A stretch of 64,000 nucleotides of DNA from an uncultured bacterium (GCA_963765625.1 CAVXXD010000013.1:103394-167393); one strand, 5' to 3'. Positions 4,027 to 41,175 are shown, counted from the first letter of the stretch. Program-made: numbers and translations. The notes: a model not told the origin generated them from the letters alone.

Positions 4027-4036
4027 GAGACAACCT

Positions 4037-4070: not shown

Positions 4071-4081
4071 TGATTGCACAC

Positions 4082-5596: not shown

Positions 5597-5658
5597 CTGT
5601 CATTGCGAGCGAAGCGAAGCAATCATATTGCTTCGCCGCTGTGCTCCTCGCAATGACA
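5597..5658. repeat. inverted repeat built from the GTCATTGCGAG(GAG)CG..GAAGCAAT unit (second repeat family); bidirectional terminator-like hairpin
   Basis: Arms 5597-5623 and 5627-5658 pair as a ~27-bp hairpin between convergent genes; the same unit occurs singly at 4037-4070. Confidence 0.6.
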
Positions 5659-5662
5659 TGGG

Positions 5663-17619: not shown

Positions 17620-17808
17620 ATGTGCGAAGCCGTCGTGTTTATCGAGAGAGAAGGCCGCCAGGAAAAGCTGATGGACGACGTGGTCGAGGTCAAGCCCGAG
17701 GGGGGCAAGCTGGTGCTGGTGGACGTCTTCGGTGAGCAGAAGGTGGTAAGCGCCAGGATCCGGGAAGTCCGGCTGATGGAGCACGAGATCCTGCTTATTC
17801 CGGTGTAG
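17620..17808 (+). CDS. cooT: CooT-family nickel-binding protein
   Basis: 62 aa starting MCEA (Cys2 Ni ligand). Overall pattern MC.A.V....G....L.DV.EV..EGG.L.L..FGE...... matches CooT. Confidence 0.6.
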   Translation: MCEAVVFIEREGRQEKLMDDVVEVKPEGGKLVLVDVFGEQKVVSARIREVRLMEHEILLIPV

Positions 17809-18766: not shown

Positions 18767-18850
18767 ATCAGACTACTCCTGTCAATAAAATCGCGGCTTG
18801 GAAAACAGCATACAGGATACATGATGCCGCCCCCCCGCTTCAAGTCAGGA

Positions 18851-18948
18851 AAGTTGGGGTCAGACCCCTTCTCCACTTTCTCGGAAATCTCCGGAAAAAG
18901 TTGCTGGTGCCGGAGAAAGTGGAGAAGGGGTCTGACCCCAACTTTCTT
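18851..18948. repeat. 34-bp perfect inverted repeat AAAGTTGGGGTCAGACCCCTTCTCCACTTTCTC with 30-nt spacer; member of the KGSDPNF/GGGTCTGACCCCAA repeat family; putative terminator of the rpsF-dnaB operon
   Basis: Arms 18851-18884 and 18915-18948 are exact reverse complements; overlaps the dnaB stop. Confidence 0.7.
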
Positions 18949-20323
18949 AATCGCGGTAGCTGGAGGAGGGCATGTCGTTGAAACAAGTGAATTCACCGTT
19001 GAAGGTGAGTTTGATCTCGCCGGTGGGACCGTGGCGATGCTTGCCGATGTTCAGCTCGGCCACGCCTTGAACGTCAGGGTTGTCGTGGTCGTAGACCTCT
19101 TCGCGGTAGATGAAGAGAATGAGGTCGGCGTCCTGCTCGATGGCGCCTGACTCCCGCAGGTCGCTCATGATGGGCCGCCGGTTCTGCCGCTTCTCCGGTT
19201 CGCGGGAGAGCTGGCTGACGGCGATGACCGGGACGTTGAACTCGCGGGCGATAACCTTGAGGGCGCGGCTGATGGCGGATATCTCCTGCACGCGGTTCTC
19301 CATGCGCCGGTCGAAGTTCATCAGCTGGATGTAGTCGACGATCACCAGGCCCAGGTCCAGGTTGTCGCGGGTCTTCATCCGCCTGATCTTGGAACGCATC
19401 TCCATGATGCTTACGCCGGCATCGTCATCGATGATGACAGGCGCTTCAGAGAGTACCTTCATGCTGTCGACCAGCCTTTTCCACTCACCGGCGTCGTTTT
19501 TCTTGTACTCGCCCTCGAGGAGTTTCTTGGCATTGACCCGGGCGTGGGAGCAGAGCATGCGCTGGGCCAGTTCCCTGGAGCTCATCTCCAGGCTGAAGAT
19601 GGCCACGGCCTTGCTGGACTTGATGGCGATGTTGGAGGCGATGTTCAGGGCCAGGCTGGTCTTCCCCATGGAAGGGCGGGCCGCCACGATGATGAGGTCT
19701 GCCGGGTGGAGGCCCATTATCTTTTTGTCCAGTTCGACGAACCCGGTGGATATGTAGGAAGATTCTCTTTTCCCGAGGCCCAGCGCTTCCATCTCGTCGT
19801 AGGTCTCCGCCAGCAACATCTTCCAGTTGGCCACCTGCCCGTCCCGTTCCCGGTCGGATATCTGGTAGACGACGTTCTCGGCCTCATCCAGGGAGGCGGC
19901 GATATCTTCGGCCTGGCCATAGCCGATGGCGGTGATGCGGTTGCCGGCCTCGATCAGCCGGCGCCGGGTGGCATGGTCGTGGACGATCTCGGCGTAATTG
20001 ACGGCATTGACGGTGGTAGGGACCAGGGAACAGAGAGCATGCAGGTAGGAACGGTCTCCCACCGCTTCAAGGTCACCCTGGGCGCGCAGGGCCTCCGCGA
20101 CGGTGATAGGGTCGACCGGCTCGCCCCTGCTGTAGAGGACGTAGGCGACCTCGTAGATCTTGCGGTGGGCGTCCTTGTAGAAGTCCTCGGGCAGGAGGAC
20201 TTCGGTGACGTTGGCGATGGCATCCTTCGACAGCATGATCGCGCCCAGCACGGACTGCTCAGCTTCCAGGCTGTAGGGGGGATTGCGGTCGCTCATGCCA
20301 TACATCTGCGCGGTCGTTGCCAT
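18947..20323 (-). CDS. dnaB: replicative DNA helicase
   Basis: DnaB N-terminal domain, Walker A GKTSLALN, H4 motif SQLSR; no intein. Confidence 0.9.
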   Translation of the reverse strand: MATTAQMYGMSDRNPPYSLEAEQSVLGAIMLSKDAIANVTEVLLPEDFYKDAHRKIYEVAYVLYSRGEPVDPITVAEALRAQGDLEAVGDRSYLHALCSLVPTTVNAVNYAEIVHDHATRRRLIEAGNRITAIGYGQAEDIAASLDEAENVVYQISDRERDGQVANWKMLLAETYDEMEALGLGKRESSYISTGFVELDKKIMGLHPADLIIVAARPSMGKTSLALNIASNIAIKSSKAVAIFSLEMSSRELAQRMLCSHARVNAKKLLEGEYKKNDAGEWKRLVDSMKVLSEAPVIIDDDAGVSIMEMRSKIRRMKTRDNLDLGLVIVDYIQLMNFDRRMENRVQEISAISRALKVIAREFNVPVIAVSQLSREPEKRQNRRPIMSDLRESGAIEQDADLILFIYREEVYDHDNPDVQGVAELNIGKHRHGPTGEIKLTFNGEFTCFNDMPSSSYRD

Positions 20324-20380
20324 TCCGCATTACCCCTTACATCATCGGCCGGACACGGGCTTGTCGGTGAAAACCGCCGG

Positions 20381-21010
20381 CTATTCGCCGGCGGCTTCCT
20401 CTACGGGCTCCACGGCTTCGCTCCCGGCTGCCTCGTCGGCCTCGGGGGCCTCCGCAACAGCTTCGGGCTCGGCGGCCACGGCCGGAGCTTCTTCCATGGA
20501 GGCCTCGGCGGCCTCGGGGGCCTCAGCGGCCTCGGTCTTGGGTTCCGGAAGCACGGTGGTTCCGTCCTCGGATACCACCCTGATGTGCACGATGGTCTCT
20601 TCCTGGGGATGGAGCTTGAGCCTGGCCTCGTAGATCCCCACGCGCTTGATGTGCTCATCCAAATGGATCTTTTTGCGATCGACCTCGATGCCCAGTTCGT
20701 CCTTGATGTGCTGCGAGACCTCCTTGGGGGTGATGGTACCGAAGAGCTTGCCTTCCGCTCCCACCTTGACCCGGATCTCGAACTTGTGCTCCTGGATCCT
20801 CTCGGAAACGCCGCGCGCCTTGGACAGTTCGCGGTCGGCCTTGATCATTTTGACCTTGGCCAGCTGCTCTACTTCCTTGGTCTTGCCGCGCGTGGCCCGG
20901 AGCGCCAGGTTCTGCGGTATCAGGAAGTTGTTGGCATAGCCGTCCTTGACCTCGACGATCTGGCCGCGCTCGCCCAAACCCTTAACGCTGGATATAAGAA
21001 TGACTTTCAA
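20381..21010 (-). CDS. rplI: 50S ribosomal protein L9 with ~60-aa Ala/Glu/Pro-rich C-terminal extension
   Basis: MKVILISSVKGLGERGQIVEVKDGYANNFLIP L9 signature; C-terminal low-complexity tail AEAPEAAEASMEEAPAVAAEPEAVAEAPEADEAAG. Confidence 0.85.
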   Translation of the reverse strand: MKVILISSVKGLGERGQIVEVKDGYANNFLIPQNLALRATRGKTKEVEQLAKVKMIKADRELSKARGVSERIQEHKFEIRVKVGAEGKLFGTITPKEVSQHIKDELGIEVDRKKIHLDEHIKRVGIYEARLKLHPQEETIVHIRVVSEDGTTVLPEPKTEAAEAPEAAEASMEEAPAVAAEPEAVAEAPEADEAAGSEAVEPVEEAAGE

Positions 21011-21028
21011 GATCAGCCCTCTCTTTCC

Positions 21029-21283
21029 TTACTTTACTTCGCCCTGGCGGGAAGTATAGGGCACCAGCGCCACCTCACGGGCGTTTTTGACCGCTTTGGC
21101 CACTATCTTCTGGTGCTGGGTGCAATTACCGGTCACCCGGCGGGGCTTGATCTTTCCTTTTTCGGAGAGAAAGCGCTTGATGGTGGGCAGGTCCTTGTAA
21201 TCGAGGAAATCGATTTTATCTTTGCAGAACATGCATACCTTCCGCTTAGGTTTCTTAACGTAGCCCGCTGGCATTTTAACCAA
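21029..21283 (-). CDS. rpsR: 30S ribosomal protein S18
   Basis: KVCMFCKDKIDFLDYKD...TGNCTQHQKI S18 signature. Confidence 0.85.
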   Translation of the reverse strand: MVKMPAGYVKKPKRKVCMFCKDKIDFLDYKDLPTIKRFLSEKGKIKPRRVTGNCTQHQKIVAKAVKNAREVALVPYTSRQGEVK

Positions 21284-21334
21284 CCTCCAATTCCTTTCTA
21301 CTAGTTGATGTCCGGCGGGGCTACGGCTTTGGGT

Positions 21335-21838
21335 CTAAAAGGCGATCTCGTCGTCGGTTTCCGGCAGGACGTTGTCCTCGATCGGCATGTCGCCGAATTC
21401 GTCGTGTACGCCGTTGCCGCCGCGGCCCGGGCCTGTCTGGCCACCTCCGCCTCCGCCTCCGCCTCCTGAATCTCCACCGTATCCTCCGCCGTTGTAGGCG
21501 CCTTCCGAGCGATCGCGGCTGCCAAGGAAGACGACCCGGTCGGCCACGATATCCGTGGCGTAGCGTTTCTGGCCGTCCTGCCCTTCCCAGCTGCGGTTCT
21601 GCAGGCGCCCTTCCACCAGAACCGGCCTCCCCTTGGAGAGATACTCGGCTGACGTCTCCGCCTGCCTCGCCCAGACCACTACGTTAAAGAAGTCGGTCTC
21701 GCGCTCACCCTGCTGGTTGGCGCGGTCGCGGTTGACGGCGATCTTCAGTTTGGTCATCGCCGTGCCGCTGGGCAGGTATCTCAGTTCGGGATCCTGGGTC
21801 AGGTTGCCTACCAAAATCACCCGGTTGTAGCTTGCCAT
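21335..21838 (-). CDS. ssb: single-stranded DNA-binding protein
   Basis: OB-fold N-terminus NRVILVGNLTQDPELRY, Gly-rich linker, acidic tail DDEIAF. Confidence 0.9.
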   Translation of the reverse strand: MASYNRVILVGNLTQDPELRYLPSGTAMTKLKIAVNRDRANQQGERETDFFNVVVWARQAETSAEYLSKGRPVLVEGRLQNRSWEGQDGQKRYATDIVADRVVFLGSRDRSEGAYNGGGYGGDSGGGGGGGGGQTGPGRGGNGVHDEFGDMPIEDNVLPETDDEIAF

Positions 21839-21938
21839 TTCATCCTCCTGTGAATCGTCCTCTGCCTATGGCTTGAATGCTATCAGGCCGCAAAGACGAT
21901 TCGCGTCGCTTGCATCGCCCCTCTTTTCTTTCAAAGAA

Positions 21939-22229
21939 TCAGTCCTGGTTGAGTACGAAGATCTTGAACCGCAGGACCTCGTCGTTGATGGAGAGGACAC
22001 GGTCCAGCTCCGTGATCAGAGGGTTGTCGCCCTTGAAGTTGACTACCGTGTAGTAGCCGTCAGCCTGGTGCTTGATGGGATAAGCAAGATGGCGTTTGCC
22101 CCAGATATCAGTTCTGTCGACAGACCCGCCATACTCGGCGATCAGGCCCGTCGCCCGGTTGAGCAGCGCCTGTTGCTGCTCATCTTCCAGTTCCGCCCGG
22201 CTGATGAGCATGAGCTCATAGTCGCGCAT
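21939..22229 (-). CDS. rpsF: 30S ribosomal protein S6
   Basis: MRDYELMLI...WGKRHLAYPI S6 signature. Confidence 0.85.
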   Translation of the reverse strand: MRDYELMLISRAELEDEQQQALLNRATGLIAEYGGSVDRTDIWGKRHLAYPIKHQADGYYTVVNFKGDNPLITELDRVLSINDEVLRFKIFVLNQD

Positions 22230-22737
22230 ATTTCACCTCCTTCGGTCTAAACGGCCCCCGGTCCCGCCGGGAGCAGAAGGCAATCCCGGTTCGAACATTT
22301 TCGAACCCGCTAGTTTTTTCGAACCGTGTAAATATAGCACAGTGGGAAAGCTGCGTAAACCGGGGTAACTCAATAAGAGCTCCGTCCCTCCTGGAGAGAA
22401 AGCCTCCCTGGGTACCTCCTTAGTACTTAGGCCACTCCACACCAAGAAGACGTGCGGGGCTTGGGGTATGCGAATGTTCGATAAATCATTCGATGGTACA
22501 GCTCGTTACCCGGAGGGTTTCAAATCCCAAATATGGGATAAGTATAAAGGAGCAGCTAAAAGGGGGGCACCGTTCCGTGGAACTGGAAGTAAACGAGCCT
22601 GGAGGAGGCTGCCGGTTTGCTGCAAGAGTATGCGCTCGCGCTGGTCTACGGCGAGAGAAGCCCGCCGCCTTTTAACGCCCATGTCCATCATGCCGCAAAC
22701 AGGGGAGGCAAAACCTAACCTGACAGGAGGAAAGGAC

Positions 22738-24027
22738 ATGTTCAGACGGAATACATCCATGCTGGCCATCTTGGTCATGCTGGCCAGCATAGCCTTAATG
22801 ATAACGCCCGCGGCGGCGGCGACCGGCCCGGGTTACGCCTGGGTGCGGGTGGCTCACGCCTCCCCCGACGCCCCGGCGGTGGACGTATGGGTGGACGGAG
22901 CAGTGGCGGTAAGCGACCTGGCCTTTGGTGAGGTCACCAGCTATCTGCTGGTACCCGCCGGAGCATACAACATCAAGGTCACACCTACCGGGCTCACCAC
23001 CCCGGTGGTCATCGACGCCGACTTGACCTTCGACAAGGGCACAGCCTACACCGTCGCCGCCACGGATTACCTGGCCTCGATCACCCCCATGGTCTACATC
23101 GACGACAATTCCTGGCCCGACCCGGGCGAGGCTAACGCCAATTTCATCCACCTCTCCCCCGACGCCCCAGCGGTGGACGTGGGAGTTGTGGGAGGCGCCA
23201 ACCTTTTTACCGACATAGAGTTCCAGGAGGCCTCGACCTACGTCGGCGTCCCCTCGGGGATTTACGACCTCGAGGTCAAGCTGGCCGGGACCTCCACGGT
23301 GGTCCTGACCCTCAACGACGTGGACCTGATGGCGGGAACGGTCTACACCGTCTTCGCCGAAGGCCTGGCCGGCGGGGGGCCGCCTCCACTGCAGGCGGTA
23401 TTCGCGTCCTTCGCCCCCAAGGGCACGGTGTGGTACCTGGCCGAGGGGTGCACCGAGAGCGATTTCGAGACCTTCATCCTGGTGCAGAACCCCAATTCCA
23501 CCGCCACCACGGTTGGCTTGACCTTCATGACCGACACCGGGGCGGTGACCGGGCCCAGCGCGACCCTGCCACCCTTCTCGCGCCAGACCTGGAAGGCCAA
23601 CGATTACGTCACCAACTGGAACGTCTCCACCCTGGTGGACGCGAACCAGATGGTGGTGGCGGAGCGCTCTATGTATGGGAACAACCGAACCTGGGGACAC
23701 GACTCTATCGGGGTCACCGCGCCCGCCATGCTATGGTACCTGGCTGAGGGTTCCACCCAGGGCGGCTTCGAGACCTTCATCCTGGTGCAGAACCCTGGAG
23801 CGGTAGAGGCCAACGTGGAGTTGACCTTCATGACCGAGGCCGGGCAGGTGGCCGGGCCGTCCATGAAAATACCGCCCCATACGCGCTATACCTGGAAGGC
23901 CAACGACTTCGTCACCAACTGGAACGTCTCCACCATGGTTGAGTCGGATGAGTTAGTCATCGCCGAGCGGGCCATGTACGGGGACAACCGCACCTGGGCT
24001 CACGATTCCATCGGATACGCTCCTTAG
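22738..24027 (+). CDS. secreted DUF4397-domain protein with two C-terminal ~105-aa WYLAEG modules
   Basis: Start moved to MFRRN (22738, GGAGGA RBS) with a signal peptide. Two DUF4397-like halves (VRVAHASPDAPAVDVWVDG / IHLSPDAPAVDVGVVGG) followed by two WYLAEG...QNP...ERSMYG modules; ends SIGYAP like the YVTN gene. Confidence 0.6.
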   Translation: MFRRNTSMLAILVMLASIALMITPAAAATGPGYAWVRVAHASPDAPAVDVWVDGAVAVSDLAFGEVTSYLLVPAGAYNIKVTPTGLTTPVVIDADLTFDKGTAYTVAATDYLASITPMVYIDDNSWPDPGEANANFIHLSPDAPAVDVGVVGGANLFTDIEFQEASTYVGVPSGIYDLEVKLAGTSTVVLTLNDVDLMAGTVYTVFAEGLAGGGPPPLQAVFASFAPKGTVWYLAEGCTESDFETFILVQNPNSTATTVGLTFMTDTGAVTGPSATLPPFSRQTWKANDYVTNWNVSTLVDANQMVVAERSMYGNNRTWGHDSIGVTAPAMLWYLAEGSTQGGFETFILVQNPGAVEANVELTFMTEAGQVAGPSMKIPPHTRYTWKANDFVTNWNVSTMVESDELVIAERAMYGDNRTWAHDSIGYAP

Positions 24028-24053
24028 GCGAGCCGCGAGACCTGTTTCTAATA

Positions 24054-24087
24054 AAGGAGGCCCGGTTCAGCCGGGCCTCCTGTTCTA
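24054..24087 (+). terminator. rho-independent terminator-like hairpin
   Basis: AGGAGGCCCGG-TTCA-CCGGGCCTCCT perfect 11-bp stem 27 nt after the stop of 22738-24027. Confidence 0.5.
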
Positions 24088-24274
24088 TCCGTGCCGGCTC
24101 CTTCCCGCGGTGAACCCGGGGTTATGCCCTCAAGCAGAAAACCAGTCCTTGTGGGGGCAGTAAGCAATGCGATCTGAGTGCCCTTAAGGATTCACATGAT
24201 ACCTGCAGGGTAATATATAAGAAGTAATACGACGATTCTTTCGGCTGACCCGGAGGAGCTGAGGAGGTAGAAGT

Positions 24275-25061
24275 ATGGGCAAACGTCTGGTGGACCTGAG
24301 CATCAGTATCGAGAACGACCTGCCATCCGACCCCCCCATGATGATTCCCAAGGTGACCTACGTCGACCACGCCATGGGGGCGCCGTCCATGACCGAGTTC
24401 TTCCCCGGCATCGACCCGGCGCGCGACCTGCCCGGCGGCGTGGGGTGGGCCCTGGAGTTCGTCACGCTCTCCACCCACTCCGGCACCCACCTGGACGCGC
24501 CCTGGCACTACCACCCCACCATGGACAACGGGGCGCCTTCTTTGACCATCGACCAGGTACCGCTGGAGTGGTGCATGGGCGACGGGGTGGTGCTGGACTT
24601 CCGGGGGTTCGGGGACGGCTACCTGGTCAGCGCGGCGGACATGGAAGCGGCTTTCGAGAAGATGGAGTACCAGCTCAAGCCGGGGGACATCGTGCTGGTG
24701 AATCACCGGCGCCTCCGCCTGGTGGGGCAAGCCGGAGTATCTCCTCAAGGGGTGCGGCATGGGCCGGGAAGCCACCCTGTGGCTGACCGAGCGGGGGGTG
24801 CACGTGGTGGGGACCGACGCCTGGAGCTGGGACCGGCCCCTGCCGCTGATCGCGAAGGAGTACGAGGAGTCGCACGACGCTTCGATAATCTGGGAGGGCC
24901 ACTTCGCCGGCATCGAGAAGGGTTATTGCCACATCGAGAAGCTCACCAACCTGAAGACCCTGCCATCCACCGGCTTCACCTTCTTCTGCTTCCCGGTGAA
25001 GGTCAAGGGCGCCAGTGCCGGCTGGATCCGCGCGGTGGCGCTGGTGGACGAGGACGACTGA
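24275..25061 (+). CDS. cyclase family protein (kynurenine formamidase-like), one frameshift near 24700
   Basis: HSGTHLDAPWHY motif; the C-terminal half (WLTERGVHVVGTDAWSWD) is in the 24759 frame; a 1-nt indel at about 24700 joins them. Confidence 0.6.
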
Positions 25062-25108
25062 GGATCAAGGGCTGAGGTTGGAGTGCTGAGAAGGTTTAGG
25101 GGGGATGC

Positions 25109-25849
25109 GTGATGGTTGAGGAGAAGAAGTTCACGCGGGAGGAGCTGGCGAGACACGACGGGGTTACCGAGCCGACGATATATGTCGCGTACAAGGGCGC
25201 GGTCTACGACGTCACCGCGAGCCCCCTGTGGAAGAAGGGGTCGCACATGCAGCGCCACACCGCCGGGCGCGACCTCACCGCTGAGCTGGGGGCCGCCCCG
25301 CACGGCGAGGAAATGCTCGGCCGCGTGGCCCGCGTGGGGGTGCTGGCCGAAGAGCCGGACACATCCCTGGACCATCTTCCGAAGAGCCTGCGGGTTCTTC
25401 TTCAGAGATACCCGGAGTTGAGGAGGCCGGTCCACCCGGTGGTGGTCCACATCCCCATGGCCTCGGCCCTGCTCGCTCCTTTCTTTGACCTGGCCTACCT
25501 GGCGACGGGGCGGAAGAGCTTCGAGGAGACGGGTTTCTACCTCGAGGTGCTGGCGCTGCTGATGGCGCCAGCGGCCATCGCCAGCGGGGCCTTCAGCTGG
25601 TGGGTGAACTATCGCGCCGGGCGCATGGCCCCCATCATGATCAAGATCCCCGCGGCGGGGGCTTATACGGTGACGGCGGCAGCGCTGGTGGCGTGGCGGG
25701 TGGCCGACCCGGGCGTGCTCGACGAACCCGGGAGCGGGGGCGGGAGCGGTAGCAGGAAGCGCCGCGGCTACCTGGCCCTCTCCATGCTCATGCCCGCCAT
25801 GGCCCTGGTGCTGGGATACTTCGGGGGCAAGATCGCCCACCCACACTGA
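25109..25849 (+). CDS. cytochrome b5-like heme-binding domain protein fused to a membrane domain
   Basis: N-terminal FTREELARHDG...YDVT...HTAGRD (cyt b5/steroid-binding fold), then about four TM helices. Confidence 0.55.
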   Translation: MMVEEKKFTREELARHDGVTEPTIYVAYKGAVYDVTASPLWKKGSHMQRHTAGRDLTAELGAAPHGEEMLGRVARVGVLAEEPDTSLDHLPKSLRVLLQRYPELRRPVHPVVVHIPMASALLAPFFDLAYLATGRKSFEETGFYLEVLALLMAPAAIASGAFSWWVNYRAGRMAPIMIKIPAAGAYTVTAAALVAWRVADPGVLDEPGSGGGSGSRKRRGYLALSMLMPAMALVLGYFGGKIAHPH

Positions 25850-25857
25850 GGAATGGG

Positions 25858-26643
25858 GTGAGTGCCGTGAAGAAAGTGACCGCTCTGGTCGGGAGCGCCC
25901 GCAAAAAAGACACCTACGATGCGGTCCGAGAATTCCTCGACAGGCTGGAGAAGCTCGGCAACGTCGAGAGCGAGATCGTCATGCTCTCGGACTACCGCAT
26001 CGAGACCTGCCGGGGATGCAAGATCTGTTTCACCAAGGGAGAGGAGTTCTGCCCGCACAAGGACGACCGGGACGTGCTGATCGGGAAGATGATGGCCTCG
26101 GACGGCGTTGTCTTCGCTTCGCCCAACTATTCTTTCCAGGTGTCCGGGATAATGAAGGTCTTCCTCGACCGGCTCGGCTTCGCGTTCCATCGCCCCCGGT
26201 TTCACGGCAGGACCTCCACCAGCATCGTGATGCAGGGGATCTATGGGGGGAAGAAGATCGTCAAGTACCTCGATTTCGTGGGGTTCGGGCTCGGCTTTGC
26301 GAAGGTGAAGGGGAGTTGCCACACCGCCTTCGAGCCCATGACCGCCAAGGAGCGGCGGAAGCGCGATAAAGCCCTCGCCAAACACAGCAAACGCTTCTAC
26401 AAGCAGCTGATAAAGCCAGCTGGTCGCGGGCCCAGCCTGCTTGAGCTGCTGCTGTTCTCCATGGCCCGTTCAAGCATGAGTGTGACCCTCGACGACAGTT
26501 CCAGGGACTACCGGTACTATTCCGAACGCGGGTGGTTCGAGTCGGATTATTACACTCCGGTGCGGCTGGGCTTCTTGAAGAAGATTTTGCTCAGGCTCTT
26601 CGACGCGGTGTGGAAGATGGCCTACCGGGGCAAGGCACGATAG
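25858..26643 (+). CDS. flavodoxin-like NAD(P)H-dependent FMN reductase / iron-sulfur flavoprotein family
   Basis: VTALVGSARKKDTYDAV...VVFASPNY flavodoxin-like fold motifs; CRGCKIC...CPH cysteine cluster. Exact start uncertain (GTG at 25858 or 25867). Confidence 0.55.
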   Translation: MSAVKKVTALVGSARKKDTYDAVREFLDRLEKLGNVESEIVMLSDYRIETCRGCKICFTKGEEFCPHKDDRDVLIGKMMASDGVVFASPNYSFQVSGIMKVFLDRLGFAFHRPRFHGRTSTSIVMQGIYGGKKIVKYLDFVGFGLGFAKVKGSCHTAFEPMTAKERRKRDKALAKHSKRFYKQLIKPAGRGPSLLELLLFSMARSSMSVTLDDSSRDYRYYSERGWFESDYYTPVRLGFLKKILLRLFDAVWKMAYRGKAR

Positions 26644-26657
26644 GACGCTAGGCGCCA

Positions 26658-26709
26658 TGTGGAGGTGTGGAGGGTGTGGAGGTTGGTGACAGGCACCTTG
26701 TGGAGGGGG
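26658..26709 (+). promoter_or_regulatory. G-rich GTGGAGG-repeat motif, copy B (TGTGGAGGTGTGGAGGGTGTGGAGGTTGGTGACAGGCACCTTGTGGAGGGGG)
   Basis: Matches copy A with 2-3 substitutions; about 85 nt upstream of the 4Fe-4S gene. Confidence 0.45.
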
Positions 26710-26792
26710 CAGCAGATTGTCGACCGTTTTTGCCTTCTTCCGAGCCTCTTGTTACCTTAATCACAAGTAGAGGCAGACTCAGGAGGTAACGA

Positions 26793-27692
26793 ATGTTTGC
26801 GCATGTCAGCGAATCGGGCAACCGTATGCACCAGCATATCCCTTTCCCCCTCAGCATCCTGGGCCCCAAGTACGAGTACATGATCATGAAGCTGCTAGGG
26901 ATCATGTCGGATACCAACTGGCTTTACCGCTTCCGCATCACCCGCTGGATCGTAGACAAGCTGGCCAACCAGGTGGTCATCCCCATCATCCACGGCGAGG
27001 TGGTGACCCCTGATGAGATCGACAGCCTGGTCCACCAGCTCGAAAAAGAAGGCCACCCCATCTACGTCGGCATATGCGAATGCAGGCACGGCGAGAACCG
27101 CATCGACCCCGAGATGGTCGAGGGGCACGACCCCAACTACACCTGCGTGATGATCGGCGACTGGGGCAGAGGGCCACATCTACAGCTACCCCAGATATTA
27201 CAAGCCCATCAATGCCGACGAGCTGATGGAGCAGACCCGTTTCTGGCACGCGCGAGGACCGGGTGCTCAACGCCTGGGGCATCAGCGCCAGCCACGGTTT
27301 CGTCATCTCCTACTGCCACTGCCAGCCCGAGTACTGTATCCCGCTGCGCCACCAGTTCAAGCGAGGCGATACGGTGTTCAGGCCCGGATACCACTACGCC
27401 GTGGTCGACCAGGAGAAGTGCCAGGGCGTTGATGATTGCGAGTGGGACTGCAGCAAGCGACTGCTGGTTCAACGCCATCAGCGTCGAAGGCGGCAAGCCG
27501 GTGGTCGACACCGAGCGCTGCCACGGCTGCGGCCAGTGCTTCGAGTACTGCCCCACCGGCGCGGCGGCAGCAGTGCGCAAGGAGGACTTCGAGCTCTACT
27601 ATCTGCTCCGACGACCTCCTTCACCCCGAAGCCCGCACCTTATCCGCATCCGCCCCAGCGAAGCAAATAGCGGGGAAGGCAGGGGTTATTGA
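26793..27692 (+). pseudogene. 4Fe-4S dicluster domain protein interrupted by about 3-4 frameshifts (27180-27600)
   Basis: Two ferredoxin motifs (EKCQGVDDCEWDC and ERCHGCGQCFEYCP) lie in different frames (26793, 27263 and 27226 frames). Joining them needs several 1-nt indels. Confidence 0.45.
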
Positions 27693-27826
27693 GGAAGTAG
27701 AGGTCTAGGCCGGGCCCGGACCTCCACTCATCGCAGTCCCTCCCTCCTCCACGTCAGACCCCGATGTGGAGGATTCTTCTTCTCAAATCAAGCCTGAGAT
27801 GAGAGAATAGCGGCTGAGGTTTAACC

Positions 27827-28456
27827 ATGAGCGAATATATAGACAGGATCAAGCTCGCCCTCCGCCGCCCGAGCATCGCCTGGCACCAGTGGCAGCTGCG
27901 CCGCGGCGGCGTCGACGCGGCCCCTTACGTGTGGATATCCGGCAAGCCCGACGTGGCCCTCAGCGCCGGCGCCACCTGCACCATCGGCAACGCCACCTTC
28001 ATCCCTTCCACCATCCAGATCCGCGGCGCCGACCGCGGCCGCATCATCGTCGGCGAGCACTGCAGCATCGACTCCTTCTCCCGCCTCTTCGCGGCCAACG
28101 ACGCCACCCTGAGACTGGAGGAAGGCGTGGCCGTCGGCCCCTTCAACATCATCAACGCCTTCGACGACTGCACCATCAAGCGGAACACCATGCTCGGCCC
28201 CTACGTCAACATCAACTGCGCCGACCACGGCATAGAGATGACCGGCGAATGCATGCGCTTCCAGCCCGGATGCTACGGGCCGGTGGTGATCGAGGAGGAC
28301 TGCTGGATATGCTCCCACGCCGTCATCCTGCGCGGGGTGACCGTGGGCAAGGGCTCGGTGGTGGCGGCGGGTTCGGTGGTCAACTGCGACGTCCCGCCCT
28401 ACAGCATCGTGGCCGGCGTGCCCGCCAAGGTCGTGGGCACGCGCGAGGAATGTTAA
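27827..28456 (+). CDS. hexapeptide-repeat (LbH) acetyltransferase
   Basis: Left-handed beta-helix hexapeptide repeats (IGEHCSIDSFSRL, IKRNTMLGPYVNI, CSHAVILRGVTVGKGSVV), maltose/galactoside O-acetyltransferase-like. Confidence 0.7.
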   Translation: MSEYIDRIKLALRRPSIAWHQWQLRRGGVDAAPYVWISGKPDVALSAGATCTIGNATFIPSTIQIRGADRGRIIVGEHCSIDSFSRLFAANDATLRLEEGVAVGPFNIINAFDDCTIKRNTMLGPYVNINCADHGIEMTGECMRFQPGCYGPVVIEEDCWICSHAVILRGVTVGKGSVVAAGSVVNCDVPPYSIVAGVPAKVVGTREEC

Positions 28457-28488
28457 GAAGAAGAGTCGCACTACGAGAGGAGCTTTTC

Positions 28489-29259
28489 ATGGAAGATACG
28501 AACGCCGCCGGCAGCACGGACCGGATGCACGAACTGACGGTGGTCCTGCCCACCTATAACGAGAAAGAAAACGTCCGCAAGATCGCCGAAGCGATTCTTT
28601 CCCAGCCCCTGGACCTGGGCCTGCTGATAGTAGACGACGGCTCCCCCGACGGCACCGGCGACATCGCCGACGAGATGGCCGCGGCCGACCCCCGCATCCG
28701 GGTGATGCACCGCGAGGGCAAGGGCGGCCTGGGCACCGCTTACCTGGCCGGCTTCCGTTACGCCATGGACCGCGGGGCGGAGTACCTCTTCGAGATAGAC
28801 GCCGACTTCTCCCACAACCCCGCCGACCTCCCCCGCCTCTACGAGGCGGCCTCCAAGGCCGACGCGGCCATCGGCTCGCGCTACGTCAAGGGCGGCGGCT
28901 GCGAGGGCTGGAGCTGGTTCCGCTGGATGATCAGCCGCGGCGGCAACCTCTACACCAAAATAGTGGCCCGCACCAAAACCACCGACACCACCGCCGGCTT
29001 CCGCTGCTACACCAGACGGGTGTTGGAGGCGCTGATGGCCCTGGACCGCATCGACGCGCGCGGCTACGCCTTCCAGGTGGAGATGACCTTCGTGGCCGAA
29101 GCCCTGGGCTTCGAGATCACCGAGGTGCCCATCACCTTCACCGAGCGGGTCGAGGGCGAGTCCAAGATGAGCGGCAACATCTTCGTCGAAGGCCTCAGGG
29201 TAGTCTGGGGCCTGCGCCGCAAGTACCGCGACCTCCTCAAGGCGAAGAAGGCAAAATAA
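28489..29259 (+). CDS. GT2 family glycosyltransferase, polyprenol/dolichol-phosphate mannosyltransferase (Ppm1/DPM1-like)
   Basis: LTVVLPTYNEKEN...LIVDDGSPDGT...GKGGLGTAYLAGF...DAD motifs. Start at 28489 in the 27889 frame after GAGAGG. Confidence 0.75.
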   Translation: MEDTNAAGSTDRMHELTVVLPTYNEKENVRKIAEAILSQPLDLGLLIVDDGSPDGTGDIADEMAAADPRIRVMHREGKGGLGTAYLAGFRYAMDRGAEYLFEIDADFSHNPADLPRLYEAASKADAAIGSRYVKGGGCEGWSWFRWMISRGGNLYTKIVARTKTTDTTAGFRCYTRRVLEALMALDRIDARGYAFQVEMTFVAEALGFEITEVPITFTERVEGESKMSGNIFVEGLRVVWGLRRKYRDLLKAKKAK

Positions 29260-29283
29260 CCCGCCACGGGTCAACCCCGTAGG

Positions 29284-29392
29284 AAAGTTGGGGTCAGACC
29301 CTTTCTTTAGTTTCTCTAGGCAGGCTGCTTTCGAATGCCGGTTTCGGAGAAATTCAAGAAAGGGTCTGACCCCAACTTTCTTTCCGGCTACG
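29284..29392. repeat. inverted repeat of the same family (GAAAGTTGGGGTCAGACCCTTTCTT arms) between convergent genes
   Basis: Arms 29284-29308 and 29367-29392 are reverse complements; lies between GT2 (+) and HAMP sensor (-) stops. Confidence 0.65.
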
Positions 29393-31079
29393 CCATCGAC
29401 CTCAGCACTTCCTGCGCCCGCTTGAGCAGCCGCTGGATGTCGGCGAAGGAACTCTTCTCATCCACGACGATCTCTTCGTCCAGTTCCCCCTCCATCAGCC
29501 TCGCGGATATGCCGTCCAGCTCGATGATGGGCCTGGTGATGAAACGTCGGGTGGCCCAGGCCATGGCCAGGGGAGAGAGCAACAGGCAGAGCGCCAGGAA
29601 CAACAGGCTGAGCCAGAGCTGGCTGGTCAGCAGGCTGCTGCTGCCGCTCTCGTACAGGTCGCCCAGGACGTCCGCCTGGGGTGTGACGTCCACTACGAAA
29701 TAATCGAACTGGTCGCTGCCGAACCCCGGATATGCGGTCCTGTTCTCAAGCACTATCACCAGGTCGCCTTCGGTGTAGTAATCTTCGTAGATGGTCACCG
29801 GAGCCCCCATCTCGGACGGCAGGGGCTGCTTGAGCTCCTCGCCTTCTTTGACGGAGGTGAAGTAACGGCCTTCACCTGTCGCCGGGTCCCGTATGAAGGC
29901 CACCGTAGAGTCGCAGTTATAGGTGTACCTGATCATCTCCACCAACCGCTCTATCACCTGGAGGCGGTCCATCTCCACATTCGGGTCCCAGAGTTCCTTG
30001 CCGATGTAGACGCTCGGGTGTGACCATGCATAATCGATGATGCTGTCGTTCGCGCCGCTCCAGTAACCCGCCATCTCCCGGTTGACGTTGTCCAGTATCG
30101 CGTCGGTCTTGTTGTTGACCAGGACTATCGAGGTGACCAGCAGCGCCACGGTCGCGACAAGAAATATAATGGTGGTCACCAGCGCCCACACCGCGATCAC
30201 CTGGTTGGTCTCCCTTTTCTGCGCGGCGGTATCGGATTCCGCTTCCGTAACGCTTTCACCTCCCGCTTTCGCCAGGATGACGCGGCCGCTGTTTACCAGG
30301 CGCTGAAGGTTGGCGAAGATGCTCTTCTCGTGTACTTCTTCCTCGGCCTCCGACTCTCCCTTGAGGATGTCCCTGGCCTCCTTGCTAAGTCGCGAGATAG
30401 GCCGCTCCAGCAGCCGGGTTATGGAGAACCTTATGATGAAGAAGGAGAGGGCCAGGAAGAGGAGGAAGATCACCGCGACCCATATTATCTGCTCCTTGAT
30501 CTGGCTGGATTTCTCTTCGTCGTAGGCCTGCTTGAGGATCTCGTTCTGCTCGGTGTTGTCGATCACGATGATGGCCTCGTCACCCGGGATTATCCCTTCT
30601 TTATCCAGGACCAGGAAGGAGCCTTCCCTCCCTCCCAACTCGTTCATGACAACGTATTCCTCCCCGCCGGCTATGCCCCTCGGCAGGTCCGGTATGGCCA
30701 TGCTCTCATCCCTGGCCCTGGAGACCACCCGGCCGTCCGCTGCGTAGTAGATCACGAAGTCCGCGTCGTAAGCCTTTTGAAAGGAATCGGTGTAAAAAGT
30801 TACGGCCTTGGTGTTGGCGGGGTCCCGCAGGGTCGAGCCGAAATCGATGCCGGTCTGTTTGAAGAACTCCTCCATGCTGGCATAACATCCCTGGATGTGA
30901 TCGGCGATCTGCCCGGCCATGGCCAGCTTCATCTGGTGGGTCTGCTCCTTCAGGTTGTTGCGCGAACTGATCATGAGGTAGAGCGATACGGAGGCGATGA
31001 GCAGGACGCAGCAGAGAGTGCTCACCAAAACGAGTTTCCTTATTTCGGCACCTTTAAACATCCTGATGAATCCGCTCAC
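29388..31079 (-). CDS. membrane protein with two tandem periplasmic-sensor + HAMP modules and no output domain
   Basis: TM - periplasmic region - TM - HAMP (ITRLLERPISRL...EKSIFANLQRLV), then the same arrangement repeated (ITRPIIELDGISARL...EKSSFADIQRLL). No kinase, MCP or GGDEF domain. Confidence 0.55.
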   Translation of the reverse strand: MSGFIRMFKGAEIRKLVLVSTLCCVLLIASVSLYLMISSRNNLKEQTHQMKLAMAGQIADHIQGCYASMEEFFKQTGIDFGSTLRDPANTKAVTFYTDSFQKAYDADFVIYYAADGRVVSRARDESMAIPDLPRGIAGGEEYVVMNELGGREGSFLVLDKEGIIPGDEAIIVIDNTEQNEILKQAYDEEKSSQIKEQIIWVAVIFLLFLALSFFIIRFSITRLLERPISRLSKEARDILKGESEAEEEVHEKSIFANLQRLVNSGRVILAKAGGESVTEAESDTAAQKRETNQVIAVWALVTTIIFLVATVALLVTSIVLVNNKTDAILDNVNREMAGYWSGANDSIIDYAWSHPSVYIGKELWDPNVEMDRLQVIERLVEMIRYTYNCDSTVAFIRDPATGEGRYFTSVKEGEELKQPLPSEMGAPVTIYEDYYTEGDLVIVLENRTAYPGFGSDQFDYFVVDVTPQADVLGDLYESGSSSLLTSQLWLSLLFLALCLLLSPLAMAWATRRFITRPIIELDGISARLMEGELDEEIVVDEKSSFADIQRLLKRAQEVLRSMA

Positions 31080-31195
31080 CGCAAAGCCCCCTTCATCGGT
31101 TTCCTTATGTCTAATAGTACCCCGGAAAGCTGGATTTTACTTCCATCAAGAAAAAAAAGAAAGAATGGTCGACAGTTGCTCGAGCGGGCGGGAGA

Positions 31196-31262
31196 AAATC
31201 AAAAAGGGGTCTGACCCCAATTTTCCTACCAATTTTCCTATGACCCCAATTTTCCTACCGGA
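31196..31262. repeat. half-unit of the same family (AAGGGGTCTGACCCCAATTTT) plus tandem CCCCAATTTTCCTACC x2
   Basis: Seen directly; intergenic between the HAMP sensor and GGDEF genes. Confidence 0.5.
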
Positions 31263-32625
31263 GGTCGTCTGAGAAGAGGCGGACCTGGTCCGGGCCGGCG
31301 GCCTGCGCGGCTTCCATAGCCAGCACGGCTTTCTCCAGCAGGACGGTGTCGTTCTCGGCGCTGGCGGGGAAGGAAGCGACGCCGACGCAGGCGGTCAACC
31401 GCTCCGCCTCCCGGCCCTTCTGGGCGGGGAAGGGGTAATCCTCCACCACCTGCCGCAGCCTCTCGGCCAGGCGCATGGCCCCCAGGCGGCGTGTCTCCGG
31501 CAGGAGCACGGCGAAGCGGCTCTCGCCGATGCGGGCAGGGACATCGACTTCGCGGGTGCTTTTTCTGATGGCGTTGCCCAGGTCGGACAGGGCCAGGTCG
31601 GCGAGGGCGCTGCCGTTGTTCCGTTCGTACTGGTCGAAACCGTCGAGCTCCAGGACGACGAGGCAGACCACCAGGCTGTAGCGGCGAGCGCGGTTTACCT
31701 CCTCCGCCAGGCGCGAGAGAAAGAAGTACTGGTTGAAGAGGCCACTGACGGCGTCGCGGGTGATGTTGGACTCCAGCTTGCCGTAGAGCTGCGATATCTG
31801 CAAGGCCAGAGAAGCCTGGGTAGCCGCAACCGTGAGCACTCCCAGGAGGTAAGGCATGAAGCCGTCCTCGTTCCGCCTGCCCACCAGCAGGACTCCGGCC
31901 GCGCGGCCGCTCATCTTCAAGGGAACGGCCATGAGGCTCTTCACGCCGGCCTCTCGCAGAAACTCGTCGGTGTCAAAGTCCTCGGGCGACAGTTTCAGCG
32001 ACAGGCTCTTGCCCAGTTCCATCACCGCGTCAAGGATTGAACCGGCAACGCGGACGCTCCTGTTGATCGGATGCGCGGCGCCCTTCCCATCGGCCACCAC
32101 CATGTCGAGTTCGCCCGGCAACTCGCCCGGGAGGAGGACAAAACCGACGTCGGCGCCGCACAGCTTGATGGCATGGACGAGCACCTCGGTCAACTTGGGC
32201 AGGGGATCGGTATAGGCATCGACCACCTGGACGCTCTCGTAGAAGGTGCTGATGTCCCTGAGGACCTGGCGCAGGTGCTCGTCGTCGGCCTCCCGCACCG
32301 AGGTGAGGTAGGCGAGAAAAGCGTTCTCAGGGCTGCCGCCCCCGATGTTAGTTATATTACCCTTGTAGCTGCTGCCTCTGCGCGCTTCTTCCCCACGCGT
32401 GCTGAAAAGAATATCCAGGCTCTTATCGCGCAAGAGGGAATCGAAGTCGGGGTATCTCGGCGGAGTAGGCACGCCCTTCGACCACTCGACGTCAGGCAGC
32501 TCGCCGACCCAGCCGGCGAACTCGATGTCGCCGCCCATCTCGTGAAGGAAGCCGTAGGCCTTCGCCGCCAGTTCGTTGTAACCGTCGAATGCGATTTTCA
32601 GGGTCACCCGCAAACCTCCATTCAT
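31255..32625 (-). CDS. GAF-domain protein with a degenerate GGDEF domain
   Basis: GGDEF-fold region (FNQYFF...LELDGFDQYERNNGSALADLAL...) in which the GG[DE]EF motif is replaced by RIGESRF; N-terminal GAF-like region. Confidence 0.6.
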   Translation of the reverse strand: MNGGLRVTLKIAFDGYNELAAKAYGFLHEMGGDIEFAGWVGELPDVEWSKGVPTPPRYPDFDSLLRDKSLDILFSTRGEEARRGSSYKGNITNIGGGSPENAFLAYLTSVREADDEHLRQVLRDISTFYESVQVVDAYTDPLPKLTEVLVHAIKLCGADVGFVLLPGELPGELDMVVADGKGAAHPINRSVRVAGSILDAVMELGKSLSLKLSPEDFDTDEFLREAGVKSLMAVPLKMSGRAAGVLLVGRRNEDGFMPYLLGVLTVAATQASLALQISQLYGKLESNITRDAVSGLFNQYFFLSRLAEEVNRARRYSLVVCLVVLELDGFDQYERNNGSALADLALSDLGNAIRKSTREVDVPARIGESRFAVLLPETRRLGAMRLAERLRQVVEDYPFPAQKGREAERLTACVGVASFPASAENDTVLLEKAVLAMEAAQAAGPDQVRLFSDDLR

Positions 32626-32813
32626 GCTTGTTGCCGCAGTGATATTCTACACTCTAAAGAATTCCTTGACCAGCGATTAATCAAGGGAAATCCCTTGTCG
32701 GAAGAGTAGGGGTGTTTACTTGAAATGAACCCGTGGTAAAATATGTTAACGGCTTTCAATATCAGGGCTTCAAGGAATCCAAACCGGGGCTGCCATAGTT
32801 AGGGAGGGTTGCA

Positions 32814-34187
32814 ATGAAGCGCAGGGTATTATCCATCTCATCCGTCGTTGTCTTCGCGTTGCTGCTGTCGTCCGTATTGGGTTCCGTCACCGTGGCGGAA
32901 ACGCCGGCCACGACGGCCGACGGCGAGAGGCTTCTTTCGGACATCTTCACCGCCCACACCGTGGACGGAGTAGACCTGAAGGTCTGGCACTACCGTCCCG
33001 AGGTCACCAGCTCACTCAATGAAGGAGCTCAGCCCATCATCATGATGCCCGGCATGGCCTGCAACTTCGACTTCTTCGACACCCACACCAAGGAAGGAGT
33101 CACCTGCTCCACCACTCTCCCGGCCGATCTGGCGGATTGGGCCGTAGGCGACACCTACCTGCAGAACGAGGACCCCATGCGCTACTACAGCCTGGCTTAC
33201 TATCTCTGGTCCGAAGGCTATGACGTCTGGATGGCCAACTACCGCGGTCAAGGCCGGGACGAGGTCCGCAGCGGCGGTGCCACCGGTTACTCCATCGACG
33301 AACTGGCCATCTACGACATGCCGGCCATCATCAGCATGGTCAGGGAACTTTCGGGCTTAAAGCCCATCTGGACCGGTCACAGCATGGGCGGCATGATGTC
33401 CTACTACTACCTGCAGGGCTGCCGGTTCGAGGACATGGCCGACCACGACTCCAGCGTCATCTCGGACCCGGCCCTGTGCGCCGAGCGCAACAATGGCGAC
33501 GGACCGCAGGCCCTGAAAGCCCTTTTCACCCTGGACAGCCCGGACAGCCCCTGCGGCGAAGTGCCATGGATACTGGGCGCGCTGGTCTATTCGGTCTGTT
33601 ACGTGCCCTGGTACCTGGACATCAGGCCCCTCACCGCCACCTTCGGCGGCATTCTCGGCGACCCCGTCCTCGGCCTGGAGAGTTTCTACCGCCAGGTATG
33701 GGCCGACTTCGGGCTGCCGGACCTCTTCTTCCCGCTCAACATCCTCCTCAGCTTCAATCCGCCAAATCTCAACGGCGACCTCGCTTCGTATTTCATCACT
33801 AACGGCGCCGACGGATTCAGCAACCGCGCCGTGATCCAGCTGATGGACGGATGCAACAACCGGGTAATGCGCGAGGACTACCGCAACGGCACCTTCAACT
33901 GGTGGCGCTGGTACCCGCCCATCCCGGCCGAAGGTGACGGTTATTACTACTACTCCAGCAACATGGACAAGATCAGCCTGCCGACGTTTATCCTCATCGA
34001 CGGCACGCGCGACATCACCAACCCCGAGGACGTCAAGGCGGTCTACGACAAGAAAACCCGCGACCCGCTGGACGACTACTACCTGGTCTCCAACTCCGCC
34101 CACGCCGACATCGTCCAGGGCTTGACCGCCCCGACGGACCTGTACCCCGCGATCGGCGCCTGGCTGGACACCTTGCCGGCCGACTGA
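32814..34187 (+). CDS. secreted alpha/beta hydrolase (lipase/esterase-like)
   Basis: Signal peptide; nucleophile elbow GHSMGG (GxSxG). Confidence 0.6.
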   Translation: MKRRVLSISSVVVFALLLSSVLGSVTVAETPATTADGERLLSDIFTAHTVDGVDLKVWHYRPEVTSSLNEGAQPIIMMPGMACNFDFFDTHTKEGVTCSTTLPADLADWAVGDTYLQNEDPMRYYSLAYYLWSEGYDVWMANYRGQGRDEVRSGGATGYSIDELAIYDMPAIISMVRELSGLKPIWTGHSMGGMMSYYYLQGCRFEDMADHDSSVISDPALCAERNNGDGPQALKALFTLDSPDSPCGEVPWILGALVYSVCYVPWYLDIRPLTATFGGILGDPVLGLESFYRQVWADFGLPDLFFPLNILLSFNPPNLNGDLASYFITNGADGFSNRAVIQLMDGCNNRVMREDYRNGTFNWWRWYPPIPAEGDGYYYYSSNMDKISLPTFILIDGTRDITNPEDVKAVYDKKTRDPLDDYYLVSNSAHADIVQGLTAPTDLYPAIGAWLDTLPAD

Positions 34188-34210
34188 ACGAAAATTGGGG
34201 TCAGATGTCC
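34186..34210. repeat. degenerate half-unit of the same family (AAAATTGGGGTCAGATGTCC)
   Basis: Between convergent stops of the alpha/beta hydrolase and the ABC-2 permease. Confidence 0.35.
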
Positions 34211-34962
34211 TTGCGGTTGAAGATGTACACGGCGCCGGAGGCAAACGCCACAATGAGGACCGTGGCGGAGGCGAGGGACGGCAGCGCCTCACCGAAGCCG
34301 CTGGTCCGGCAGATGATCCCGGAGGATACCTCCACCAGATAGCCGGGCCCGTATTTCTTCAACGGCTCGAACAGCCCGGGGATCACGAACACCGAGAACG
34401 TGCTGATCAGGGCAAGCCCCGCCGCCGCCCCGCTCGACCTGACCAGTGTGCTGTAGAAGGTGGTCAGCGACAACGCCACCAGCAGGAAGGCGCTGGTACA
34501 AACGATAGACAGCGGCACTCCGGCCGGCGAGAAATAATCGAAGATTATGACGGAATAAATGTAAAACACCGCGGTCCCAAGGATGTTGCCGCCAACGATG
34601 ACCATGGCGTTGGCGGTGTACCGGGAGAGCAGGTAGTCCCGTCTGGAGATGGGCTTGGTGAGCATCATGGCGGCCACCCGGCGCGACTTGTCGCCGGCGA
34701 CGGTCCCCATGGCGAAGATGATCACCAGCAGCAGCGCCATCTGGCTGATGAAGCTCATGTACTGCAGGGCGGCGTCGATCACGCTGGCTTCCCCGGTTAT
34801 GGTCATGGTAAGGCTGCCGGTATCGGTGACGGGCATCATCTCGGGCAGCATCTTCATGGCCAGGGGAGCGGTCATCCCGAAGACCCCGAAGATGATCACC
34901 GCTATCAGCACGCGGTAGGTCTTGAGCTGCTCGCGAAGGTCCCTGGCTAGCAACCTGCTCAC
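34201..34962 (-). CDS. ABC-2 type transporter permease
   Basis: Six TM helices; ABC-2 family organisation directly downstream of an ABC ATPase. Confidence 0.6.
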   Translation of the reverse strand: MSRLLARDLREQLKTYRVLIAVIIFGVFGMTAPLAMKMLPEMMPVTDTGSLTMTITGEASVIDAALQYMSFISQMALLLVIIFAMGTVAGDKSRRVAAMMLTKPISRRDYLLSRYTANAMVIVGGNILGTAVFYIYSVIIFDYFSPAGVPLSIVCTSAFLLVALSLTTFYSTLVRSSGAAAGLALISTFSVFVIPGLFEPLKKYGPGYLVEVSSGIICRTSGFGEALPSLASATVLIVAFASGAVYIFNRKDI

Positions 34963-41055: not shown

Positions 41056-41175
41056 GGGTCCCCTCCACGAGACCCGGCCGTGAATTAAACCCAAGAAAGA
41101 AGGGTCCGTCGTACAAAACATCGGGTATGGCCCGGTTTTGGTAGGCGGACCCTTCTTTCTTTCTTTTGAATTACG

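Follow-up and report, generated by a model that had tools for sequence, protein, structure and literature searches.

The 64,000-nucleotide stretch of an uncultured bacterial genome analysed here (GCA_963765625.1, CAVXXD010000013.1:103394-167393; hereafter the window) harbours a dispersed family of palindromic DNA elements built around the core GGGGTCAGACCCC. These elements probably belong to the repetitive extragenic palindrome (REP)/REPIN type, REPINs being inverted REP doublets. Such small, non-autonomous palindromic elements would be spread in trans by a transposase resembling the REP-associated tyrosine transposases (RAYTs). We base this assignment on doublets with a fixed 30-nt spacer, on the lack of a target-site duplication (TSD), on the presence or absence of an element at an orthologous site and on the occurrence of the core on both sides of RAYT-like genes in other genomes. 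The REPIN class is already known, and the window family adds a member to it rather than a new type of element.

Anatomy and local copies of the repeats

The core, a perfect 13-nt palindrome, was found with at most one mismatch at positions 18856, 18927, 29290, 29361 and 31206 (eight strand-matches in the 64-kb window, with 0.24 expected). The 17-mer AAGTTGGGGTCAGACCC gave five matches at up to two mismatches, against 0.01 expected. With the same tolerance, the arm start GGAAARTTGGGGTCA(GACCCC) gave seven, against 0.15 expected, and additional positions at 31241 and 34189. The seven arm-level copies make up four intergenic sites, A to D, between 18.8 and 34.2 kb, and none lies in coding sequence. 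Core and arm-start pattern scans of the remaining 48 kb yielded no more copies, and the local density is thus four sites per 64 kb, all inside 16 kb. A dispersed palindromic family had been proposed by an earlier reading of the sequence alone (the original prediction), and its existence is borne out by these four sites, with matches far above chance. They are composed as follows.

18849..18946: REPIN A, inverted arms 18849-18882 and 18913-18946 of 34 nt, 100% complementary, 30-nt spacer
29276..29387: REPIN B, inverted arms 29276-29316 and 29347-29387 of 41 nt, 88% complementary, 30-nt spacer
31192..31229, minus strand: REP singlet C, one full arm, GTAGGAAAATTGGGGTCAGACCCCTTTTTGATTTTCTC
31230..31259, minus strand: partial tandem duplications of the 5' part of arm C, GGTAGGAAAATTGGGGTCA, then TAGGAAAATTG (match 31241-31255)
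34190..34204, plus strand: remnant D, 15 nt, GAAAATTGGGGTCAG

The family unit in the window is an arm of about 34-41 nt, (GTAG)GAAARTTGGGGTCAGACCCYTTYT....TTTCTC. REPINs A and B can be aligned along both arms and have spacers of the same length. Read from the sequence, the longest perfect arm stretch of REPIN B is 25 nt. Remnant D is an exact match of 15 nt, for which we estimate a chance probability of about 1e-4 in 128 kb. A GTAG tetranucleotide is found 5' of arms B1, B2 and C and of the outermost partial copy of C. It directly precedes B1, C and the outermost partial copy, and at B2 it lies some bases farther out (at REPIN B, positions 29279-29282 and the reverse complement of 29389-29392). 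Inspection of the sequences flanking the elements, A and B included, revealed no direct repeat that would represent a TSD.

Folded as RNA, REPIN A reaches -76.3 and -72.7 kcal/mol on the two strands, with z about -12, and REPIN B -71.0 and -60.8 kcal/mol; over both REPINs the z-scores range from -7 to -12. Folding of the repeat pairs, which had been suggested along with the original prediction, thus gave very stable hairpins of -61 to -76 kcal/mol. Copy C by itself folds as RNA no better than shuffled sequences, and the truncated C and D cannot form the long hairpin.

Distribution of the core in other genomes

A scan of the GTDB species-representative genomes for the 19-mer GAAARTTGGGGTCAGACCC yielded 88 stretches, which belong to about 50 assemblies of several phyla; we estimate that about 9 would be expected by chance (2 strands x 596 Gb x 2 / 4^19). 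In 48 of these 88 stretches the dyad extends over at least six of the next eight bases, giving GAAAATTGGGGTCAGACCCCAATTTTC, and chance is therefore excluded. The extended copies are found in Gamma-, Beta- and Alphaproteobacteria, Actinomycetota (Acidimicrobiia and 'Actinomycetes' metagenome-assembled genomes, MAGs), Acidobacteriota, Binatota and Planctomycetota. Chance seems to account for the matches to GAAARTTGGGGTCAGACCC in Bacillota, Myxococcota and Patescibacteria. Two MAGs are rich in copies, the gammaproteobacterial SMAG_U2280 with 19 loci and the Burkholderiales SMAG_U2685 with 9, and many of the copies in these two are inverted doublets. Other genomes also commonly have single arms, like C, and single units in tandem arrays. 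A metagenome scan with a looser pattern added 26 contigs, whose G+C contents range from 32% to 70%.

No sign of plasmid or phage carriage was found in PLSDB or in viral contigs: the canonical doublet had no match among PLSDB plasmids by BLASTN, and a scan of 2.9 M viral contigs was equally without a match. No verbatim occurrence of the core turned up in the searchable literature, where only unrelated primers matched.

In the loci fetched from other genomes (designated by L numbers), 107 of 156 repeat sites are intergenic, although only 11% of the bases are; since gene calling was crude for these counts, 'coding' sites are overestimated. The genes on both sides are in tandem at 52 sites, convergent at 28 and divergent at 8, against a length-weighted background of 55%, 21% and 24%. 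Gaps between divergent genes, with 24% of the intergenic length, hold 8 of the 88 sites, and the repeats are thus underrepresented there.

Tandem duplications of a half-core and its flank (TGACCCC-AATTTTC beside a full core) recur in unrelated genomes, on 10 of 424 core sides. They were seen at position 4584 of L010, in L012, L013, L046, L066 and L107, and at 31230-31259 of the window. Their break point at the palindrome centre points to nicking or slippage at the apex of the hairpin.

Association of the core with RAYT-like Y1 transposases

REP/RAYT systems are recognized operationally by a transposase gene that lies between copies of a repeat which also abounds in the rest of the genome (PMC5581495, PMC3337134). 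In the copy-rich genome SMAG_U2280, a 244-residue open reading frame (ORF) with HVHLL and YIELNP motifs has three core copies on each side (locus L010). Its product matches the Pfam family Y1_Tnp (PF01797) with an E value of 2.5e-13 and the NCBIfam model 'REP-associated tyrosine transposase' (REP_Tyr_transpos) with 71.5 bits. A phmmer search of PDB sequences with this protein gave no match at E values up to 0.01.

The RAYT-like proteins have at least 8000 homologues. One homologue, in L002, lies between inverted GGGGACAGACCAC units. Three further homologues were taken from long contigs, and two of them are repeat-flanked, one in L119 (60% identity) by the inverted variant GGGGTCAGAGCCC and one in L120 (51% identity) by the inverted variant GGGGACAGACCCC. 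The third, from a Methylococcales genome with 39% G+C (L121), has no clear flanking repeat. In L002, L119 and L120, transposase homologues of 49-60% identity thus go together with inverted flanking cores that show one or two base changes. A degraded homologue lies between core copies in L091. Locus L099 is near-identical to positions 1-1249 of L091 minus a 654-nt transposase cassette, and one REP is left at the junction. Across the fetched loci, the only gene that recurs next to the repeats is this Y1 transposase, and not a DDE transposase.

The transposase gene of L119 is located between a DsbB gene and an M20-peptidase gene. The sequences on both sides of the L010 and L091 transposases resemble each other, which suggests that they may occupy the same slot.

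Host lineage and the orthologous dnaB gap

The host of the window is probably a deep-branching Actinomycetota MAG, judging from its DnaB. The nearest proteins are from uncultured Actinomycetota (Geothermincolia, Ca. Solincola; 55-57% identity), and closer relatives reach 59-77%. The gene order rpsF-ssb-rpsR-rplI-dnaB-BcrAD is syntenic in these relatives. In the window, REPIN A lies between the co-directional dnaB (minus strand) and BcrAD/BadFG-type ATPase gene (17795-18766, minus strand). It directly follows the dnaB stop codon TAA (18947-18949, minus strand), which abuts arm A2, and is 82 nt upstream of the BcrAD/BadFG-type gene. The same gap has no repeat in L115-L117, whose DnaB is 66% identical, and in L118, with 77% identity, it harbours another palindromic family, GTCGTTGCGAGCAAAGCGAAGCAATC. 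The downstream promoter-like sequence of the gap is conserved between the window and L118. Because these relatives lack REPIN A at the orthologous position, the element is an insertion rather than a conserved dnaB signal. A conserved dnaB-linked regulatory RNA was likewise rejected, the element being absent in relatives.

The relatives carry related variant cores at other places, GGGGTCAGGCACC. Three direct copies of the variant repeat GGGGTCAGGCACCAAAACTTCAAT are found in a divergent intergenic region of L115 (4346-4534), and a GGGGTCAGGCACCAAAACTTCAAT-type variant copy with a half-core duplication is present in L118 (1681-1720).

Gene neighbourhood, stop codons and spurious ORFs

Neighbouring genes were assigned with Pfam and by a choice of ORFs guided by G+C content at third codon positions. 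REPIN B lies between convergent genes, one for a GT2 glycosyltransferase (plus strand, end 29259) and one encoding 563 residues of no assigned family (minus strand). The stop codon TAG of the latter (29388-29390, minus strand) is within the GTAG just beyond arm B2. Copy C is between a GGDEF/GAF gene and the start of the 563-residue gene (31079), upstream of that start, both genes being on the minus strand. The stop codon TAG of the GGDEF/GAF gene (31255-31257) is located inside the GTAG of the outermost partial copy. Remnant D fills the 13-nt gap between two convergent genes, for an alpha/beta-hydrolase (plus strand, stop 34185-34187) and an ABC-2 permease (minus strand). The stop codon TGA of the permease gene (34201-34203) is the TCA of the repeat core.

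Thus, all four sites are downstream of at least one gene, and none of the four is between divergent genes. The original prediction placed the repeats in intergenic gaps, mostly between convergent genes; the first part holds for all four sites, while the second is slightly overstated, as B and D are convergent, and A and C co-directional.

Three small ORFs had been predicted to owe a common KGSDPNF peptide to the repeat. All three do contain it, and the repeat encodes it. These spurious ORFs are listed here.

18751..18996, minus strand: 81 residues, spans REPIN A; ...KKVGVRPLL...EKVEKGSDPNF... comes from both arms
29335..29703, plus strand: 122 residues, begins in REPIN B (MPVSEKFKKGSDPNF...), antisense to the 563-residue gene
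30997..31272, plus strand: 91 residues, its C-terminal part (...KKGSDPNFPTNFPMTPIF...) being translated copy C and the partial duplications

Searches with the spurious translation as a protein query returned no candidates.

Proposed mechanism and points against it

In the model that we propose, which follows the published definitions of REPINs and RAYTs (PMC3337134, PMC5581495), two inverted arms and the 30-nt spacer would form a REPIN of about 100 nt, as at A and B. By analogy with the genomes in which this core flanks the transposase gene, these REPINs would most likely be spread in trans by a single-copy RAYT-like Y1 (HUH) tyrosine transposase, which would act on the single-stranded hairpin form and leave no target duplication. 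The TnpA-REP enzymes of E. coli, Stenotrophomonas and Marinomonas act on single-stranded REP, with GTAG as a determinant (PMC8266576). By the same analogy, the genome of the window would encode, or would once have encoded, a cognate transposase. Copies may persist where they do little harm, directly after stop codons, sometimes supplying the stop codon itself. Copies C and D would be decayed or partial descendants of REPINs. As a predicted secondary effect, the RNA hairpins would probably block 3' exonucleases, and they may attenuate read-through.

Several observations weigh against a REP/REPIN assignment. No RAYT-like gene was detected in the 64-kb window by tblastn. The RAYT-like proteins that we examined, which score 71.5-75.9 bits, are just under the NCBIfam equivalog cut-off of 80, and all are from Pseudomonadota, outside the lineage of the window. 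The window-specific extension of the arms (..CCCYTTYT....TTTCTC) is present in none of the fetched loci, with L093 coming nearest. Single window arms are weakly self-complementary, with DNA folds of -3.7 to -6.3 kcal/mol that are no better than those of shuffled sequences; for comparison, the gammaproteobacterial repeat unit folds as DNA at -8.8 kcal/mol, with a z-score of -4.2. Lastly, GTAG is inconsistent among the window arms. Its position 5' of B1, C and the outermost partial C, and offset at B2, is as in the GTAG-tagged REP superfamily (PMC3733652), but it is missing from both arms of A, which have GTCAG and TTAAG instead, and from D, and it is unconserved in 202 pooled copies from other genomes across phyla.

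The closest known systems are the REPIN-RAYT systems, i.e. the REP doublets of Pseudomonas fluorescens SBW25 and the REPs and bacterial interspersed mosaic elements (BIMEs) of E. coli with TnpA-REP/RayT (PMC3337134, PMC3116915, PMC5581495). The window family resembles them in its inverted-doublet hairpins of about 100 nt, its extragenic location, the decayed singlets beside doublets and the lack of a target duplication, and its core flanks a single PF01797 gene in other genomes. It differs from them in that its 34-41-nt arms are weakly self-palindromic and in that the associated transposases, just below the NCBIfam RayT cut-off, are known from other genomes. The host differs as well, since it appears to be a deep-branching, Actinomycetota-like bacterium, while the survey of tagged REPs by Di Nocera et al. 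2013 (PMC3733652) covers Proteobacteria, Cyanobacteria, Chloroflexi, the Planctomycetes-Verrucomicrobia-Chlamydiae (PVC) group and a few others, and does not mention Actinobacteria.

Alternative explanations

The repeats might instead be bidirectional intrinsic terminators, or 3' hairpins that stabilize mRNAs, evolved by the host and similar to each other through functional constraint rather than transposition. We consider this origin unlikely, although a number of features agree with it. All four sites follow the 3' end of a gene, two of them between convergent genes, and the family is depleted between divergent genes. On both strands, the GC-stem core is bordered by A-rich sequence 5' and by T-rich sequence 3'. 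Only this short core of 5 bp, together with its T-rich flank, passes a simple terminator scan, at 18927 and 29290 (one strand each) and at 31206 (both strands). The RNA hairpins are very stable, and a native hairpin of the same design is found at 41079-41175. Nevertheless, terminators of independent origin would not have 34-41 nt of sequence and the length of a 30-nt spacer in common, and the truncated copies C and D are unable to form the hairpin. Intrinsic terminators typically have short stems, which the 34-41-bp stems of the window elements far exceed, and no U-run follows the long hairpins. In addition, the core flanks transposase genes in other genomes, and the copy downstream of dnaB is missing from relatives; this comparison of orthologous sites already disfavours a terminator origin as the primary explanation. 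The elements thus share with bidirectional intrinsic terminators an A-tract/GC stem/T-tract design on both strands, after stop codons and between convergent genes. They differ from them as members of a repeat family with the behaviour of mobile elements, with longer stems, no clean U-run and an unconserved orthologous site. The proposal that the repeats double as bidirectional terminators is therefore no more than plausible: the depletion from divergent gaps and the stable hairpins speak for it, the missing U-run and the relatives without an element after dnaB against it. Termination or 3'-end stabilization is likely to be a side effect of the elements and not their origin.

Less probable still are miniature inverted-repeat transposable elements (MITEs), that is, internally deleted derivatives of DDE-type insertion sequences (ISs), here mobilized through terminal inverted repeats of 34-41 nt. 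Neisseria Correia elements, pneumococcal RUP and enterobacterial ERIC sequences are of this kind: about 100-150 nt long and intergenic, with inverted ends, they can affect transcript ends, and they come from DDE-type ISs that create target duplications such as TA. The window elements resemble them by their size of about 100 nt, their long inverted ends and their intergenic dispersal. The Phycisphaerae locus L049, in which two inverted motif copies 277 nt apart have extended arm similarity, has a MITE-like look. However, neither A nor B has a TSD, and neither the window nor any of the 121 fetched loci showed a parent IS whose ends match; the recurrent neighbour of the repeats is a Y1 rather than a DDE transposase. 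Single arms such as C and the tandem arrays of single units in other genomes fit REP/BIME behaviour. What the original prediction called a REP/MITE-like family can thus be sharpened to REP/REPIN: its dispersal and its location in gaps after gene ends stand, while the MITE component, with its IS derivation and TSD, is unsupported.

Very improbable, finally, is the view that a widely conserved nucleoid or regulatory protein binds to TTGGGGTCAGACCCCAA, with the repeats as its putative operators. A perfect 13-nt dyad conserved in several phyla would suit such a role, and there is a precedent in the E. coli REP/BIME elements, which are known to bind IHF (integration host factor) and gyrase (PMC2817692, PMC3479197). 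Against it, the sites are at gene 3' ends and not at promoters, the copies form tandem and inverted arrays and include truncated remnants, they have no link to a candidate binding protein, and copy A is missing at the orthologous site in relatives.

Integron attC sites (RYYYAAC ... GTTRRRY) were discarded, as the order is reversed here (GTTGGGG ... CCCCAAC) and the neighbours are housekeeping genes (dnaB, GT2 glycosyltransferase); no integrase was seen among the neighbours examined. CRISPRs were discarded in the absence of a regular array. Rfam searches at gathering scores detected only tRNA-Thr in the window, and at a permissive threshold REPIN A matched only generic long-hairpin miRNA models, well under their own thresholds.

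Other features of the window

A second dispersed palindromic family, GTCATTGCGAGGAGCG..GCGACGAAGCAA and GTCATTGCGAGCGAAGCGAAGCAATC, is present at two places in the window.

4032-4077: second palindromic family, after the ORF at 3292-4026
5600-5664: second palindromic family, hairpin pair

In L118 (4905-5010), this second family fills the dnaB-BcrAD gap exactly at the position that REPIN A has in the window. The hairpin at 41079-41175, with 41-nt arms (AAGAAAGAAGGGTCCG...CGGACCCTTCTTTCTTTCTTTT), shows a classic succession of A-tract, GC stem and T-tract and adjoins the end of the ORF at 41176-41763 (minus strand). It resembles the REP arms in design and is unrelated to them, being outside the repeat family. 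Tandem coding repeats with periods of about 312, 222/443, 327 and 170 nt are found at 12.2-14.9, 23.4-24.0 and 60.7-63.2 kb, and they indicate large repeat-domain proteins (with, for example, a WYLAEG...FETWVLVQNP-type module). The cumulative GC skew has its minimum at about 50-52 kb and rises thereafter, which could reflect a change of gene orientation or a replication landmark.

Significance of the probable REPIN family

For gene annotation, the repeats are a source of spurious ORFs (KGSDPNF, GVRPLL), and gene calls in such MAGs improve when the repeats are masked. At least two real genes, those for the GGDEF/GAF protein and the ABC-2 permease, have had their stop codons replaced or supplied by the repeats. 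The hairpins that directly follow dnaB or lie between convergent genes have predicted energies of -60 to -76 kcal/mol and probably affect the 3' ends of transcripts.

What is most interesting about the family is that the core is nearly identical across phyla and has drifted by one or two bases next to transposases of 50-60% identity. We tentatively raise the possibility, which we hold to be rather less likely than the REP/REPIN assignment itself, that the core GGGGTCAGACCCC and its A/T-rich flanks mark one ancient REP-RAYT lineage, whose recognition sequence would have been nearly fixed across phyla. This lineage may span at least Pseudomonadota, Actinomycetota, Acidobacteriota, Planctomycetota and Binatota. 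REPIN/RAYT systems have been characterized mainly in Proteobacteria. If the ancient-lineage proposal is true, the window would represent the first REPIN population described in a Geothermincolia-like lineage of Actinomycetota. On this proposal, a transposase of unusually strict sequence specificity would either have persisted vertically for a very long time or have been transferred between phyla repeatedly, and the element that it serves would have the shape of a bidirectional terminator. With one core shared by an Actinomycetota-like MAG and several other phyla, the family offers material on the co-evolution of REPs with their transposases, and on vertical inheritance versus transfer.

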